From an uncultured Bacillota bacterium (GTDB lineage: Bacteria; Bacillota_I; Bacilli_A; RF39; UBA660), in NCBI GenBank assembly GCA_947168485.1, contig CAMVLZ010000002.1, positions 36,523 through 100,522 of the forward strand: 64,000 nucleotides of DNA, in the 5' to 3' direction. A program made the position numbers and the translations under genes. A model generated the notes under the pieces. It saw only the letters and a list, made by a program, of their open reading frames with translations. It made no database searches and had not been told where the DNA came from. Shown here piece after piece: positions 3,905 to 43,143 of this stretch (position 1 is its first letter; each line of letters opens with the position of its first letter).

Positions 3905-4339
3905 ATGAAATGTAATAGATGTGGAAGAGAAATTAATGATAATGAATCATACTGCATTTACTGTGGTAATCATATAAATATGAATTATAAAAAAAAATTT
4001 AATAAAGATAAAAAGAAAGAAAAAATTCAAAAGAAAGAAATAAATACTAATGATGATGAAATAGAAGATACTACTCTATTTGTAGCTGGAAAAGTATTCT
4101 TATTTTTAATACCATTAATTATATTCGGAATAGTAATGATGAAACATTATTTAAAAGAAGCACAACATCCACAAACGGAATTTTTTGGACCATTACCAGA
4201 ACTAATGATGGTAGGTTGTTTTGGTTTTTTAGTTTTGATACTATTACTTATTCCACTAGCAATTATAGTTAATGGAGCATTTACTGGAAAATATAGAAAG
4301 CATAAAAATGAAAAAGAAGAAAATAAAAAGACTGAATAA
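3905..4339 (+). CDS. zinc-ribbon membrane protein
   Basis: N-terminal CxxC-x12-CxxC (MKCNRCGREINDNESYCIYCG), a Lys-rich linker and two hydrophobic helices. SD is AGGAGA. Confidence 0.7.
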   Translation: MKCNRCGREINDNESYCIYCGNHINMNYKKKFNKDKKKEKIQKKEINTNDDEIEDTTLFVAGKVFLFLIPLIIFGIVMMKHYLKEAQHPQTEFFGPLPELMMVGCFGFLVLILLLIPLAIIVNGAFTGKYRKHKNEKEENKKTE

Positions 4340-6202: not shown

Positions 6203-6231
6203 AAAAACTATGTGTAATACACATAGTTTTT
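6203..6231 (-). terminator. intrinsic terminator after the 457-aa gene
   Basis: ACUAUGUGUA/UACACAUAGU palindromic hairpin with flanking U-runs. Confidence 0.65.
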
Positions 6232-6245
6232 CTATTAACTTCTTA

Positions 6246-7619
6246 TTAATTACCTTTATAAACACATTTAATAGGCTTAGTTACTTTTCCTCCAGGAATA
6301 TAATCACTTAACTTTTTAGTACCATCAGTTATATCCAAAGAAGGTACTAAATCTCCTTTATTAATCATATTATAAAACTTAATTTTATTATCATCCTTTT
6401 TACTATCAACTTTATCACGTGTTAAAGTAATAATATCATAAGCAGTTTGCACTTGTCCATTTGAACTAAATGTACCAAAACCATTTCCTTGAGAATCAAC
6501 CATAACTCCAAAATTTTGAATAATTGAAGTATTATTTTGATTATATTTAACCATATAAAATTGTCCAGCAACATCTGAATTATTCCAAGGAGATCTTCTA
6601 ATTGGAACAATTAAATCAGCAGCAGATCTACCAGTTTTAGTTGTAAATGAATAATAATATATTCCAGGTCCAAGATCATTTATTGATTTACCATTACAAA
6701 TTAATTCATCATTATATGCTAAATTTCTTAAATTATTTGAATATTCCTTCGCAGTAGAAACAAAAGTATTCTTTCTACTGTTTTCATAAGTACGCGAAGT
6801 AGCAGAAATAGAGCCAAGAATTCCAGCAACAATCAAACCAATAAAAGCTAGACTAATAATAACAACAATAATAACTATAGCAGAATTACCATTACCAGCT
6901 GCTCTACATCTATTAATTCTCTCATTTTCATCTGGTGTACTTCTTATAATATTATTAATTTTAATATCAGCTTTAACTAATTTATAATTAGGAAACTCTT
7001 TAGCATAATGAATAGCTAATGCTAATCCTGCAACCATGTTAACTATTGAACATATAGGTCTAAGTGGAGGTAATAGAGTTTGTACGAAACCAGTCGCAAA
7101 ACCAATAAGTAAGGCAATTACAAAATAGCTACCTGCCTCTTTAAACAAACCACTTGCTAGTAACCAAATTGGTCCAAAAAAGAAAGTACCAATTGAAAAA
7201 CCACTTTTAGCTACACTATCATATTTACCATGAAAATATGCATCATAATACTTATCTAAATTCTCATTATTTTGAGTAGGCATAGTAAATGAAGGTTGAG
7301 CACTTACTTGACTTAACATAGTACCACAGTTAGTACAATAATTAACACCAGGTGCTACTGGAGCATGACAATTAGGACAATTAGTAGGATTACTATTTTG
7401 AGTAGGCATCCCACTTCCTCCCATTGATTGAACTCCACTATTCATTGGTTGTGTCATATTGTTCATTGGTTGAACATTATTCATTGGTTGAACATTATTC
7501 ATAGGTTGTGACATATTATTCATTGGTTGTGCTCCATTATTTTGATTATTAAAAATAGCTCCACAATGGATACAATAATTTGTATTACTAATATTCATTT
7601 TACAATTAGGACATTCCAT
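6246..7619 (-). CDS. double zinc-ribbon / QPMNN-repeat / multi-pass membrane protein with a C-terminal pilin-like globular domain
   Basis: Contains CPNCK..CIHCG and CPNCH..CTNCG ribbons, QPMNN repeats and hydrophobic helices. The C-terminal ~190 aa align by eye with the 229-aa pilin at 26853..27542 (SRTYENSRKNTFVSTAKEY vs SRTIENSRRNTFLSTAKTY; SPWNNSDVAGQ vs SSWGNADVSGW; LTRDKV vs LTRADV). Confidence 0.8.
   Translation of the reverse strand: MECPNCKMNISNTNYCIHCGAIFNNQNNGAQPMNNMSQPMNNVQPMNNVQPMNNMTQPMNSGVQSMGGSGMPTQNSNPTNCPNCHAPVAPGVNYCTNCGTMLSQVSAQPSFTMPTQNNENLDKYYDAYFHGKYDSVAKSGFSIGTFFFGPIWLLASGLFKEAGSYFVIALLIGFATGFVQTLLPPLRPICSIVNMVAGLALAIHYAKEFPNYKLVKADIKINNIIRSTPDENERINRCRAAGNGNSAIVIIVVIISLAFIGLIVAGILGSISATSRTYENSRKNTFVSTAKEYSNNLRNLAYNDELICNGKSINDLGPGIYYYSFTTKTGRSAADLIVPIRRSPWNNSDVAGQFYMVKYNQNNTSIIQNFGVMVDSQGNGFGTFSSNGQVQTAYDIITLTRDKVDSKKDDNKIKFYNMINKGDLVPSLDITDGTKKLSDYIPGGKVTKPIKCVYKGN
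7440..7529 (-). repeat. in-frame tandem repeat encoding (M/V)(S/T)QPMNN x5
   Basis: CATTGGTTG(N9-12) units are visible in the DNA and translate to QPMNNMSQPMNNVQPMNNVQPMNNMTQPMN. Confidence 0.85.
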
Positions 7620-7675
7620 ATTATCACCATTTTAATTATATCAAAACAACCACTACAAAAAAATATAAATTAACA

Positions 7676-7715: not shown

Positions 7716-7791
7716 TGGTGTCCCTGAGAGGAGTCGAACCTCCGACCAAAGGTTTAGGAAACCTCTGCTCTATCCACTGAGCTACAGAGAC
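7716..7791 (-). tRNA. tRNA-Arg (anticodon CCU), CCA encoded
   Basis: Hand-folded cloverleaf: GUCUCUG/CAGGGAC acceptor stem, GCUC/GAGC D stem, GAGGU-UUCCUAA-ACCUU anticodon arm, GGAGG-UUCGACU-CCUCU T arm. 76 nt. Confidence 0.9.
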
Positions 7792-26220: not shown

Positions 26221-26245
26221 AAAAAGAATCAAACGATTCTTTTTA
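26221..26245 (-). terminator. intrinsic terminator after the 164-aa gene
   Basis: AAAGAAUC-GUUU-GAUUCUUU hairpin plus a U-run. Confidence 0.6.
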
Positions 26246-26737
26246 ATTATCACCCTTACAATAATGATAACTACTATCAAAAGTAAATGAAAGTTTTTTT
26301 TCTTTAACATCTTTTTTTGTTAAAGAACTATAACTATTAGTACTATTTACTGAATATTTACCATCTGTTAAAAAGACAGAATATTTAGGAGTCACATCAT
26401 TATAATCAATTTTTACATAACCATAGTACTTATCATCTACTTTATCTAAATCAATAACAGGTAAAGTATCATTATTTGAAGTATTTTTTCCAACTATAGC
26501 ATAATATTCTTGATGAGATAGAGAAACTGTAGGACTATAATTACCATCTCCACCATTACAGAAAATTGCATCACTATTCCATAATGTTTTAACTTCATCA
26601 CCATAAATCTTGGCTGAAGAAATTAAATTTCTTTTTTCTGTACTTACTTTCATACTCTTCATATTAGGAAGTAAAAAATAAAAAGCAACACCTAATAATA
26701 TAATTAAAATAATTAATCCTAAACTTTTAACATTCAT
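26243..26737 (-). CDS. membrane-anchored pilin-like protein without a prepilin cleavage motif
   Basis: Has a plain signal-anchor (LGLIILIILLGVAFYFLL) rather than G/FTLxE. Downstream, RNLISSAKIYGDEVKTLWNSDAIFCNGGD resembles the pilin alpha1-C/head of the neighbours and of the 457-aa protein (NTFVSTAKEYSNNLRNLAYNDELICNGKS). Confidence 0.6.
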   Translation of the reverse strand: MNVKSLGLIILIILLGVAFYFLLPNMKSMKVSTEKRNLISSAKIYGDEVKTLWNSDAIFCNGGDGNYSPTVSLSHQEYYAIVGKNTSNNDTLPVIDLDKVDDKYYGYVKIDYNDVTPKYSVFLTDGKYSVNSTNSYSSLTKKDVKEKKLSFTFDSSYHYCKGDN

Positions 26738-26852: not shown

Positions 26853-27542
26853 TTATTGAATTACTGCTTCTTTACAAGCAACAGTAGTAGTTTCAGTATG
26901 ACCTGGCATCAATTTCTTTTGAATAGAAGGAACAGTAGCAGTATTTTTAGTTATGTAAGCAGTTGTTGGAGCAACACCAGTACTACCACTAAATAACTTA
27001 GCACTAGATGGGAAAACATCAGCTCTAGTTAATTTATCAACAGGTGTTGTACCATTTGAACCACCAAAATTAATACCATGGCCTGCAGCATCAATTAAGT
27101 TAACATACCATTCAACAACTTGTCTATTTTGATTATCAGTTCCTTTACTAACACCAACAGCACCAACTAACCATCCAGAAACATCAGCATTACCCCAAGA
27201 AGAAAGTCCACCTTGGTTAACTAACTCTTGAGCATTACTATAAGCTCTACCTTCTGTAGTAGATGGATCAGTTTGTTTTGTAGTTTGAATTCTGATAGCA
27301 AAACAATTTCCATCTGCTAAAATTGTTGCACTTGACTTATCTGAATTTAATTTAACATTATCAGCAGCATAAGCCTCTTTTCCTGCATTAGTATAAGTTT
27401 TTGCTGTACTTAAGAATGTATTACGACGAGAGTTTTCAATTGTTCTTGAAACTGCTGGAATTGCAACAATCATTAAGATACCTAAAATTGTAATAACAGC
27501 TAAAAGCTCAACTAAAGTAAATCCTTTTCTATTTTTTATCAT
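26853..27542 (-). CDS. type IV prepilin-like protein (candidate major subunit)
   Basis: MIKNRKGFTLVELLAVITILGILMIVAIP is a class III signal with G-1/F+1/E+5. The gene has its own promoter, a ~40-nt leader with AAAGGAGAA, a strong terminator and higher GC than its neighbours. Confidence 0.85.
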   Translation of the reverse strand: MIKNRKGFTLVELLAVITILGILMIVAIPAVSRTIENSRRNTFLSTAKTYTNAGKEAYAADNVKLNSDKSSATILADGNCFAIRIQTTKQTDPSTTEGRAYSNAQELVNQGGLSSWGNADVSGWLVGAVGVSKGTDNQNRQVVEWYVNLIDAAGHGINFGGSNGTTPVDKLTRADVFPSSAKLFSGSTGVAPTTAYITKNTATVPSIQKKLMPGHTETTTVACKEAVIQ

Positions 27543-41218: not shown

Positions 41219-43066
41219 TTATTTACATTTATTTCCATAATTACATGATCTACTAACCGGTAATCCACTAGTACAATTATTTAAAAGATCACACAATTTA
41301 TTCAAACGAACAGTTAATGGATTATTAGAAGTAGCTAAAATATCCTGTGTACTTCTAGCTCCATTAAAGCTTTCATTTTTACCGCCCCAAGAAACATTAG
41401 CATGAGGAGGAGAAATAGTAATACCTTCACGATAATAAATACCACAACCACTATCATTATAATCTATTTGATAATAATGTTTTGATCCATTTTTCCAATA
41501 ATCACCAGTTTTATAAGTGATAACATAAGTAGGTTTAGCTTTATCAATTCTAACATATTCAGACACTTCATCAGAACAATTATTAGTATCGTTGGCACCA
41601 CTCGCTTTAATATTACAAACTTTATATGTATATTTTTCATTAACTACTTTATTATTAGCACAAGTAAAAGTTCTAGGATAAATAGTTTTTTGCTTAGTTT
41701 TATTATTAAACTTTTTATATTTACCATCATCAACTTTATAATACCAATATCCTAATAAAGAAGCATCAGTACTAGTAGAAACTTTCCATTTTATATTAGA
41801 TTTTGTCCAGTTTTCTTTATATTTATTAGTTGTAAATTTTTTTGGACTAGTAATAGTAATAACAGGAGTTTTTGGTTTTGAAAGTTTCCAATTAGCATAC
41901 AAAGTAATTTCACAACCCTTAGTATGAACATCTTCTGCTTTACAAAAATCATCATAACTATAATCAGAAGTTTGATTATAATTTGTACCAGTACCATTAG
42001 CCTTAGTATTCCATACATCATCATCTATATAATAACCTGCTCTAGATAAATTTAAATAATCTTCATTATTCCAATTAATTAATCCACTAGAAGATAATTT
42101 TTTACCATATTTAATAGTATGAATTATATTAGTACTATTATTAATATATACATAATCGTTTTTAAGAGAATATTTAGAATTATAAGGGCTTTTTAAACTA
42201 CCACCATTACTATTAATATGAATAATAACTTTACCCACAAAATAATTAATAGTATAACTCCAACCTTTTCTTATTTTTTCATAACGACCAATTGTCTTAT
42301 TATTATCAACATCTTCTAATTCTCCATAGAATACAATTTGATATGTTGTATTCTCATCAGGATCTTCCATATTATCTGGTAAATTAATTTTTCTAGTAAC
42401 ACTAGAAGCATAATTCTTATTATTAAATTTTATTGTATTTTCATCACCTATCTTATTAGAATCTTTATACCATTGATAAGTAATCTCTTGGTCTTCTTTT
42501 AATCCTACACCATCATCTGAAATAGTAACTGATAATTTAGGTTTTTGATTCAAATAATAATACTCATTACCAGCATATTCACTAGAATCTTTAATTGTCA
42601 ATTGAGGTCCTTCTCCATCTTCTAAACTACAACTATCTAAATTAATTTCTTCAGGTCCTTCTCCATAAACAATTTCATAATTATCATTTCTACAAGTCAT
42701 ATGAGTATCATAATTATAATTACCATTTTTACTCTTTCTAACAAATACATAAGTAAAAGTCTTACCCTCACTTTCTCCTCCGCAATAAACATCTTTTAAT
42801 TGTAAGTCTTCAATCATATCTTTTTCTTTTAAATCTTCATACGTAATAACAGCACAACCAGTATTTTTAACACCAAATAAATCTTGATTATAATTATCTA
42901 CATATAATTGAGAAGAAGCTCTAATAGATTTTTCATATGTTACATATTTAGCATCTTTATTATTACTTTGAATAAAGGTAATTGAAGGTACAGCAATTAT
43001 CATCAATACACCCATTATCGCTATAGCAACAATTAATTCTATCATAGTAAAACCTTTACTCTTCAT
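41219..43066 (-). CDS. giant type IV prepilin-like protein (615 aa) with a Listeria-Bacteroides (Flg_new)-like repeat
   Basis: MKSKGFTMIELIVAIAIMGVLMIIAVP is a class III signal. An internal stretch, INSNGGSL...RAGYYIDDDVWNTKANGTGTNY...ITLYANWK, resembles Flg_new. The C-terminus is Cys-rich. ATG at 43066 is preceded by AGGTGA, and a terminator lies upstream of it. Confidence 0.8.
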   Translation of the reverse strand: MKSKGFTMIELIVAIAIMGVLMIIAVPSITFIQSNNKDAKYVTYEKSIRASSQLYVDNYNQDLFGVKNTGCAVITYEDLKEKDMIEDLQLKDVYCGGESEGKTFTYVFVRKSKNGNYNYDTHMTCRNDNYEIVYGEGPEEINLDSCSLEDGEGPQLTIKDSSEYAGNEYYYLNQKPKLSVTISDDGVGLKEDQEITYQWYKDSNKIGDENTIKFNNKNYASSVTRKINLPDNMEDPDENTTYQIVFYGELEDVDNNKTIGRYEKIRKGWSYTINYFVGKVIIHINSNGGSLKSPYNSKYSLKNDYVYINNSTNIIHTIKYGKKLSSSGLINWNNEDYLNLSRAGYYIDDDVWNTKANGTGTNYNQTSDYSYDDFCKAEDVHTKGCEITLYANWKLSKPKTPVITITSPKKFTTNKYKENWTKSNIKWKVSTSTDASLLGYWYYKVDDGKYKKFNNKTKQKTIYPRTFTCANNKVVNEKYTYKVCNIKASGANDTNNCSDEVSEYVRIDKAKPTYVITYKTGDYWKNGSKHYYQIDYNDSGCGIYYREGITISPPHANVSWGGKNESFNGARSTQDILATSNNPLTVRLNKLCDLLNNCTSGLPVSRSCNYGNKCK

Positions 43067-43111
43067 ACGATCACCTATTATAAGTTTATCACTACAAAAA
43101 ATATATGTAAA

Positions 43112-43143
43112 TATAAAAACCAACGCTTTTTAAACGTTGGTTT
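43112..43143 (-). terminator. intrinsic terminator after the 1044-aa gene
   Basis: AAACCAACG-(9 nt)-CGUUGGUUU followed by a U-rich tail. Confidence 0.7.

Follow-up and report, generated by a model that had tools for sequence, protein, structure and literature searches.

The defining feature of type IV filaments is a subunit that prepilin peptidase cuts and that is then drawn from the membrane into the fiber. What, then, is to be made of a gene whose product ends in the head of a type IV pilin and begins with zinc ribbons and a block of membrane helices? Such a gene lies on the minus strand at positions 6246-7619 of the window, by which we mean the whole stretch of 64,000 nucleotides analyzed here (assembly GCA_947168485.1, contig CAMVLZ010000002.1, positions 36,523 to 100,522), from an uncultured Bacillota bacterium. 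A preliminary description of this DNA, made by reading its sequence, had listed the elements of the 457-residue product (hereafter the fusion): an open reading frame (ORF) encoding zinc ribbons, a series of repeats, a DUF2628-like membrane block and a pilin head. Each of these elements was found where it had been placed, and we regard it as highly probable that the architecture, a pilin head on a zinc-ribbon/DUF2628 anchor, is as stated. In the explanation that we favor, with moderate confidence, the fusion is a permanently membrane-anchored, non-polymerizing descendant of the type IV pilins; this explanation covers both a pilus-linked and a pilus-independent role.

The C-terminal domain as a pilin head

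The domain in question occupies residues 271-457 (6249-6809, minus strand) and comprises the second part of the pilin helix, alpha1-C (SRTYENSRKNTFVSTAKEY), a beta-sheet, an SPWNNSDVAGQ motif and a pair of cysteines, C308 and C452. A convenient partner for comparison is encoded in the same window: a canonical 229-residue prepilin of the same head family (26853-27542, minus strand), which carries a KG/FTLVE signal and matches the Pfam N_methyl and TIGR02532 models. BLASTP aligned residues 248-388 of the fusion with this prepilin at 31% identity (E 9e-12), and when the hydrophobic helix was cut from both proteins the match persisted over 135 columns (E 2e-10). Because it survives removal of the helix, the similarity lies in alpha1-C and the globular part rather than arising from the TM (transmembrane) segment, and it is far beyond chance.

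The relationship extends well beyond this one pair. A phmmer search with residues 240-457 against 1.84 billion representative proteins returned 132 matches, 104 of which are canonical prepilins with a GFTL[IV]E signal at positions 5-40 (E from 3e-15 to 1e-4). In an alignment of 62 sequences the heads share a consensus that runs SRTIENSRKDTF..TAK.Y, a cysteine after alpha1-C, G.YY, GGKS.WGN.DV.GYV, L.D...HGI, L.R..V and a cysteine near the C-terminus. These homologies identify the C-terminal domain as a genuine pilin head, and the alignment of the last ~190 residues with the 229-residue pilin, which the preliminary description had made by eye, holds up in head-only BLASTP, in phmmer and in the shared consensus.

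An AlphaFold model of the domain, built from the 62-sequence alignment, is confident (predicted local distance difference test, pLDDT, 92.2; predicted template modeling score, pTM, 0.80) and consists of a 57-residue helix (domain residues 7-63), then a sheet and, last, a C-terminal strand, an arrangement that would fit the pilin fold. A phmmer search of the head against PDB sequences gave nothing relevant; a profile to which canonical relatives were added matches solved pilins, chiefly via alpha1. The relatives P0014-P0134 belong to a large pilin family of low-GC Bacilli with the signature GFTLIELLAVI...SRTIENSRRDTF, for which this confident head model (pLDDT 92) found no relative in the PDB with Foldseek. 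The head of this family appears to be structurally uncharacterized.

Loss of the prepilin signal

In a type IV prepilin the head would be preceded by alpha1-N and, at the start of that helix, by the class III signal. In the fusion the corresponding place is taken by a TM helix, predicted to stay uncleaved, at residues 246-270 (6810-6884, minus strand; Kyte-Doolittle peak 3.3), which AlphaFold draws as one continuous helix from 246 to 302. BLASTP aligned it with alpha1-N of the 229-residue prepilin through a five-residue insertion, with Ile at the position equivalent to Glu+5. Neither N_methyl (PF07963) nor TIGR02532 matched the fusion, although the four neighboring prepilins do match, and the class III regular expression G[FYW..][TSA]..E found nothing in it. 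Gly-1, Phe+1 and Glu+5 are all missing. Positions F, T, L, E, L, L, A, V, I, G and P of alpha1-N are nearly invariant among the canonical proteins of the 62-sequence alignment; in an alignment of six members of the fused family, the helix corresponding to alpha1-N has not one conserved column.

Because the class III signal, Glu+5 and the conserved alpha1-N positions are gone, maturation of the fusion by PilD and its packing into a filament core are very unlikely on these sequence grounds. The fusion lacks the defining pilin signal, yet its head belongs by homology to a pilin family. On both points the preliminary description, which had noted an ordinary TM helix in place of the G/FTLVE signal and proposed a head that can be neither processed nor polymerized, agrees with what the profile and motif searches, the Ile at the Glu+5 site and the unconserved helix indicate.

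Could the fusion instead be a prepilin with a giant leader, cut by the peptidase after G242 to free a pilin without Glu5, which would then prime or cap a filament? G242 is invariant, and lysines and arginines stand ahead of it as they do in class III leaders. Glu5-less minor pilins also exist in known systems (subunits of the GspK/PilX type), and this general knowledge supplies a precedent. The residues at +1 to +3 after G242, however, are polar, charged or proline (N, G, R, K and others) rather than F/M-T-L, the helix that follows has none of the nearly invariant positions of the canonical family, and we know of no precedent for a polytopic leader of 240 residues. The C-x3-G motif formed by C238 and G242 was considered in its own right as a relic of a pilin leader and rejected: it recurs in a paralogue from contig C15 of the same genome, whose C-terminus is not a pilin, and therefore belongs to the anchor and marks no relic cleavage site. 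We consider a giant leader very improbable.

The zinc-ribbon/DUF2628 anchor

What, then, replaces the prepilin leader? The N-terminal third opens with zinc ribbon 1 (C3, C6, C16 and C19, spaced CxxC-x9-CxxC; 7563-7613, minus strand), and zinc ribbon 2 follows some distance on (C81, C84, C95 and C98; 7326-7379, minus strand). The Pfam DZR model (PF12773) spans residues 3-99 and scores 21 bits in the fusion, under its cut-off of 27.3, and 42-47 bits in relatives; Zn_Ribbon_1 (PF13240) matches residues 81-102 with 30 bits against a cut-off of 25. All eight cysteines are invariant in the six-member alignment, and the octet, with its CxxC...CxxC pairing, is best read as two putative four-cysteine zinc ribbons. 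The two ribbons of the preliminary description are thereby borne out by Pfam and by conservation.

Between the ribbons lies a low-complexity linker (residues 31-61; 7437-7529, minus strand) of four QPMNN units and one QPMNS. At the DNA level it is a tandem array (Tandem Repeats Finder: period 18-21, ~5 copies, 7439-7541), so that the five QPMNN repeats read by eye become four plus a variant. The repeat is missing from the other members of the six-member alignment. Moreover, a natural variant allele, 99% identical, is without residues 3-80, that is, without ribbon 1 and the QPMNN repeats (loci L016-L018, from three runs of one study). Its 234-nucleotide deletion (about 7380-7613 of the window, minus strand) sits between two 12-nucleotide direct repeats that code for CPNC, and the full-length allele is present in samples other than those of the deletion variant. 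Ribbon 1 and the repeats are therefore dispensable in nature.

The DUF2628 membrane block (residues 136-206; 7002-7214, minus strand) contains three hydrophobic segments. What had been called a DUF2628-like hydrophobic block matches PF10947 above the gathering threshold (29.1 bits against 23, residues 136-203), as do the relatives P0002 and P0006, and its motif FSIGTFF..W.WL is invariant across the six family members. AlphaFold places helices at 143-155, 159-182 and 184-227 in this region and beyond. Between the block and the last TM helix runs a loop rich in lysine and arginine (K/R), probably cytoplasmic (residues 207-245; 6885-7001, minus strand), with 6-10 K/R per 35 aligned residues in all six members. 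Apart from the ribbons and the DUF2628 motif, the positions invariant across these members are E231, R234, C238 and G242 of this loop and several positions in the head. The TcaA model (NF053815) gave 12.6 bits against a cut-off of 550, in an alignment limited to the ribbon, and a Pfam scan of the fusion found no DNA-binding domain besides the ribbons.

Membrane topology

On which side of the membrane does the head sit? The preliminary description had left this uncertain. Hydropathy analysis detects three segments of moderate hydrophobicity ahead of the last helix (141-159, 163-183 and 186-206), and by a Hessa-type sum 163-183 and 247-270 alone are clearly TM-competent, with 141-159 and 186-206 marginal. 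If all three DUF2628 segments, or just one, spanned the membrane, the last helix would run from outside to inside and the domain would work within the cell. The three hydrophobic peaks favor this arrangement, as does the fact that only the middle one inserts clearly and the parity of crossings is left unfixed by hydropathy. It is difficult, however, to reconcile a cytoplasmic head with several other observations, the first being that the loop with 6-10 K/R would come to lie outside in all six members, contrary to the positive-inside rule. The 20 residues after the helix hold only 1-4 K/R, and the excess before it indicates an orientation like that of a pilin leader.

The second observation concerns the cysteine pair. 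One cysteine just after alpha1-C and another about five residues from the C-terminus are common to nearly all fused or leaderless relatives and to the canonical secreted pilins, and C308 and C452 both lie on strands in the AlphaFold head model; conservation of a pair shared with secreted proteins argues against a head within the cell. Third, relatives with simpler anchors put the same head opposite the zinc ribbons, whether by a single pass (P0132, with two zinc ribbons and one TM helix) or by three (P0034, with a zinc ribbon, two strong TM helices, a KK loop and a further TM helix before the head). Finally, a kinase-DUF2628-TM-YARHG architecture has been published (PMC3355149), from which it follows that DUF2628 keeps the orientation; this, too, runs counter to a cytoplasmic head. 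Because of the K/R loop, the conserved cysteine pair, the relatives with simpler anchors and the kinase architecture, an outward head is favored: very probably the zinc ribbons are inside and the head outside, while a head within the cytoplasm is quite improbable. For the side that the preliminary description could not assign, the K/R loop, the cysteine pair and P0132 thus point, although only indirectly, to the outside.

Gene integrity and distribution

The gene starts with ATG, and the family alignment is conserved over its full length. On the upstream side, reading by eye detected an extended -10 element, TGaTATAAT (7635-7643), and a ribosome-binding site, GGTGA (7624-7628), both on the minus strand. 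Downstream, 15 nucleotides past the stop codon, an AT-rich 13-bp hairpin without mismatches, with a U run behind it, forms an intrinsic terminator (6203-6231, minus strand; folding energy -14 kcal/mol, z -5.7 against shuffles). A consensus promoter and terminator scan did not flag these signals, which were found instead by eye and by folding. With its own promoter and ribosome-binding site and its own terminator, the fusion gene is therefore predicted to be a monocistronic transcription unit.

The source is a metagenome-assembled genome (MAG) of 1.26 Mb, 91.5% complete, in 45 contigs with 4.5% contamination, and the fragmentation and contamination raise the possibility of an artefact of assembly or annotation, or else of a decaying pseudogene left by a chance fusion. 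Several findings oppose this. The frame is uninterrupted and is flanked by its own promoter and terminator; independent MAGs and metagenomes retain the architecture at 32-38% identity; and a gap-free full-length copy occurs in an independent gut metagenome, with 14 substitutions, seven of them synonymous, and only one conservative change, E279D, in the head. We take the chance of an artefact or pseudogene to be negligible. By these sequence comparisons, the fusion is a real, constrained gene.

It is also a rare one. A collection of 5.8 billion proteins holds five clusters of full-length relatives (32-37% identity), and the 1.84-billion set holds about 13 representatives of the family at 50% identity clustering. 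Scanned with a sequence pattern, 185,579 species genomes yielded three other carriers, all of them MAGs of uncultured Bacilli, two from sheep duodenum and goat jejunum; the search for the same architecture in other genomes that the preliminary description had proposed as a check thus found it. The full fusion occurs in one of 201 genomes in a sample of its own order and family and in one of 399 in a sample of its class, both times the window's own genome. Near-identical DNA is present in sheep, goat and bovine gut metagenomes. Prepilin peptidase (PilD) is encoded in all four carrier genomes checked, the window's own and the three others, a very small number.

Evolutionary origin

How did a pilin head come to be joined to such an anchor? 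In a maximum-likelihood tree of the heads, the fusion falls in a clade of 13 zinc-ribbon/DUF2628 fusions (Shimodaira-Hasegawa-like approximate likelihood ratio test, SH-aLRT, 96) that is nested among prepilins. A second clade, with support of 100, combines glutamine- and asparagine-rich (Q/N-rich) tails with DUF2628 and includes a 408-residue paralogue from the fusion's own genome. Other leaderless forms stand apart: P0019 beside a prepilin (98), P0121 with P0131 (96), P0132, P0034 with P0084, and P0088, and P0081 groups with a 164-residue ORF of the window (see below). Well-supported branches force at least four origins of leaderless forms from prepilins, and parsimony counts 10.

The relative P0019 retains a trace of the event. 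In it a foreign hydrophobic stretch is followed by what is left of alpha1-N, the C-terminal half (GIFMIVGIPATQRT), and the junction therefore lay inside alpha1-N, where it removed exactly the signature for processing and assembly. Elsewhere in the family, P0088, P0081, P0131 and P0132 carry leaderless heads on very different N-termini, which may be a bare signal-anchor (possibly a Sec signal, with a VIA/F-type site), a Q/N-rich tail, or two zinc ribbons and one TM helix. These varied N-termini point to repeated replacement of the prepilin signal.

Genome context

The fusion gene keeps company with housekeeping genes. Within the window (G+C 25%), the RNase J gene and a tRNA-Arg gene (anticodon CCT; 7716-7791, minus strand, between the RNase J gene and the fusion-gene promoter) lie on one side and unknown genes on the other. 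In relatives, the fusion gene is flanked by genes for a Mur ligase and for RNase Y, and an RNase J gene is nearby, as in the window; in other carriers (loci L001-L003, L019 and L020) the order recA - Mur ligase - fusion gene - RNase Y - ... - RNase J - ftsY is constant. No conserved operon partner emerged when one was sought, the neighbors being housekeeping genes that vary between lineages. About 2 kb from the fusion gene, on the opposite strand (3905-4339, plus strand), a small zinc-ribbon membrane protein matches Zn_Ribbon_1 and, weakly, DUF4064. Membrane proteins with N-terminal zinc ribbons are frequent in the host genome.

Four paralogues that share parts of the anchor form, with the fusion, a modular family of membrane proteins within this 1.26-Mb genome, and they too have housekeeping neighbors. 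The first, of 412 residues, has the same anchor and a divergent pilin-like head (C16:4968-6206). The 408-residue paralogue mentioned above joins its Q/N-rich tail to DUF2628 and a pilin-like head (C1:10036-11262). A third, of 304 residues, carries a Tyr/Asn-rich non-pilin ectodomain on a ribbon, DUF2628 and a TM helix (C15:21032-21946), and the last, of 231 residues, places ribbon 1 and QPMNN repeats on a different membrane domain (C13:32476-33171).

The genome also encodes a pilus machine, in scattered pieces: PilD (C3:15244-15567 region) and PilC on contig C3, PilB on C6 and a PilT-like ATPase on C7. Its ORFs include 13 prepilins with a class III signal, nine of them 515-917 residues long. 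Giant modular pilins (for example window 41219-43123, C3:98131-102876, C17:17731-23721 and C29:4142-6895) are an unusually heavy investment for a reduced genome. In the window itself four prepilin genes stand in tandem, and the last gene of this pilin cluster encodes the 164-residue ORF noted above (26243-26737, minus strand), a leaderless pilin head on a plain N-terminal TM anchor. It matches the profile of the pilin family with 96.6% probability in hhalign (E 5e-10, 138 columns), and no class III motif was found in it. To judge from this match, the window encodes another anchored member of the pilin family besides the fusion, here inside the pilin cluster.

Proposed mechanism and relation to the pilus

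The preferred reading, a permanently anchored pilin descendant, can be laid out as a series of steps. The protein would owe its origin to recombination within alpha1-N. A pilin head would thereby have been joined to a scaffold that is generic among Firmicutes, in which a zinc ribbon and a membrane domain carry an ectodomain. The ribbons and K/R loop of the protein would lie in the cytoplasm, DUF2628 would make an even number of membrane crossings, and the head would emerge outside, between membrane and wall. Neither matured by prepilin peptidase nor extracted by the pilus motor, the protein would stay in the membrane. In the weakest step of the scheme, the tethered head would keep the binding surface of its free relatives, of which the conserved GGKSPWGN-type motif may be part. 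That surface could dock on pilins or on the base of a type IV filament, or bind an envelope ligand, at the interface of membrane and wall, with the zinc ribbons as the cytoplasmic contact. The protein might then work in the manner of archaeal FlaF, as an anchor, a terminator or a sensor.

Is the pilus involved at all? The preliminary description had offered, as candidate roles, a pilus-base or decoy subunit or a sensor that couples the pilus to the zinc-ribbon module; a link of this kind is plausible, although no direct sign of any of the three roles emerged. Given an anchored, outward-facing head, we would nonetheless place a role independent of the pilus somewhat ahead of a pilus-linked one. 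Against a pilus-linked role stand the modular anchor and the housekeeping context; in its favor stand the recurrent derivation from pilins and the 164-residue gene in the pilin cluster. The boldest form of the link would make zinc-ribbon-anchored leaderless heads an unrecognized component of type IV filaments in monoderms: tethered mimics of the subunit, at the filament base or in the membrane pool of pilins, that end or anchor the fiber or report its state through the ribbons, as a bacterial counterpart of FlaF/FlaG. We consider this proposal rather improbable.

The competing account dispenses with the pilus altogether. The head would have been co-opted as the ligand-binding ectodomain of an envelope sensor or membrane-tethered regulator that makes no contact with pilins or the pilus machine, and the ribbons would be its output, possibly after release, for example by binding nucleic acid or a partner. 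Several facts speak for it: the anchor is common to the paralogues, the C15 protein having a non-pilin C-terminus and the C13 protein bearing ribbon 1 and QPMNN on another membrane domain; the gene neighborhoods are of the housekeeping kind and never pilus operons; and proteins with paired N-terminal zinc ribbons, a TM helix and an extracellular YARHG domain have been proposed to be membrane-tethered transcription factors of Gram-positive bacteria (PMC3355149). However, leaderless forms arose repeatedly from prepilins, one of them, the 164-residue protein, inside a pilin cluster, which suggests selection on pilin-related properties. The absence of a DNA-binding domain other than the ribbons also tells against such a regulator, as does, weakly, the presence of prepilin peptidase in all four carriers checked. 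We judge the pilus-independent sensor or regulator somewhat unlikely as the full explanation.

A number of results weigh against the anchored-pilin reading or against its extension to the pilus. No pilus genes lie near the fusion gene, either in the window or in the loci of relatives. Because the C15 paralogue bears a non-pilin ectodomain on the same anchor, the zinc-ribbon/DUF2628/TM unit looks like a general scaffold for display or signaling, not one specific to pili. Within the genome, the local 229-residue pilin has a closer relative than the fusion head. The family is too rare for a test of co-occurrence with the pilus machinery, and no RNA sequencing run contained the fusion gene, the matching runs all being DNA metagenomes. 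Hydropathy alone leaves the side of the head undecided, and an odd number of DUF2628 crossings (one or three) would make it cytoplasmic. Foldseek searches of the PDB with the full-length and head models gave no significant match (best E 0.3, with unrelated folds), and the fold assignment therefore rests on homology to prepilins and on the order of secondary structure; this null neither confirms nor refutes a pilin fold.

Whichever role is correct, a pilin head has moved at least four times, within one pilin family, onto an anchor predicted to be uncleavable, which suggests that selection can act on a pilin that remains unassembled in the membrane. Candidates for what such a pilin does there are anchoring, termination, monitoring of the pool of pilins, and envelope binding. 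Were a link to the pilus established, the fusion would be a new part for Gram-positive pili and would parallel, in bacteria, the archaeal stator proteins FlaF and FlaG; with no such link, it is still a clear case in which a subunit of a filament was exapted to serve as a generic ectodomain. Because its members are few and come only from uncultured Bacilli of the ruminant gut, the practical impact of the family is limited until a carrier can be grown or a heterologous assay exists.

Comparison with known systems

We searched the literature on DUF2628, on zinc-ribbon pilins and on pilins that are anchored or leaderless, and did not find this architecture described; a pilin head anchored by zinc ribbons and DUF2628 is real, rare and, in the literature searched, undescribed. 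The nearest relatives by sequence are the type IV pilins of low-GC Bacilli (GFTL[IV]ELLAVI...SRTIENSRRDTF), including the 229-residue prepilin. They have in common with the fusion the SRT-x-ENSR-x-TF helix, the GGKS-x-WGN-x-DV-x-G motif and the cysteine pair, and the fusion's AlphaFold model shows a long helix and a sheet, as would be expected of such a pilin. They differ at the other end. The prepilins have a class III signal, a conserved alpha1-N and a leader of 5-40 residues; the fusion has neither signal nor conserved alpha1-N, and carries instead ~245 residues of zinc ribbons and DUF2628.

Modular type IV pilins, such as PilB and PilC of Streptococcus sanguinis, also combine a pilin domain with other modules in one polypeptide. 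These proteins keep the class III signal, add their modules C-terminally and polymerize, whereas in the fusion the added modules are N-terminal, are cytoplasmic or membrane-embedded by prediction, and come with loss of the signal.

The N-terminus has its own parallels. Gram-positive proteins that join paired zinc ribbons, a TM helix and an ectodomain include those of the TcaA/YvbJ type. The YARHG proteins (PMC3355149) follow the same N-terminal logic, with PF12773, PF13240 or PF13248 inside and a variable ectodomain outside, and DUF2628 also occurs between a kinase and a TM-YARHG unit. The fusion differs from this class in that its ectodomain is a pilin head.

The closest functional analogy is provided by the archaeal proteins FlaF and FlaG (ArlF and ArlG), although it is an analogy only, with no sequence relationship expected. 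FlaF is an archaellin paralogue without the class III signal, held in the membrane with its globular domain outside, where it serves as an anchor of the machine or the envelope rather than as a subunit of the filament (PMC4425475). The absence of the signal is matched in the fusion; the outward position of the fusion's head is deduced from the K/R bias, the cysteine pair and the single-pass relatives. FlaF, a monotopic protein that lacks a cytoplasmic domain, is a product of the archaellum operon, whereas the fusion is polytopic, has predicted cytoplasmic zinc ribbons and is encoded away from the pilus genes.

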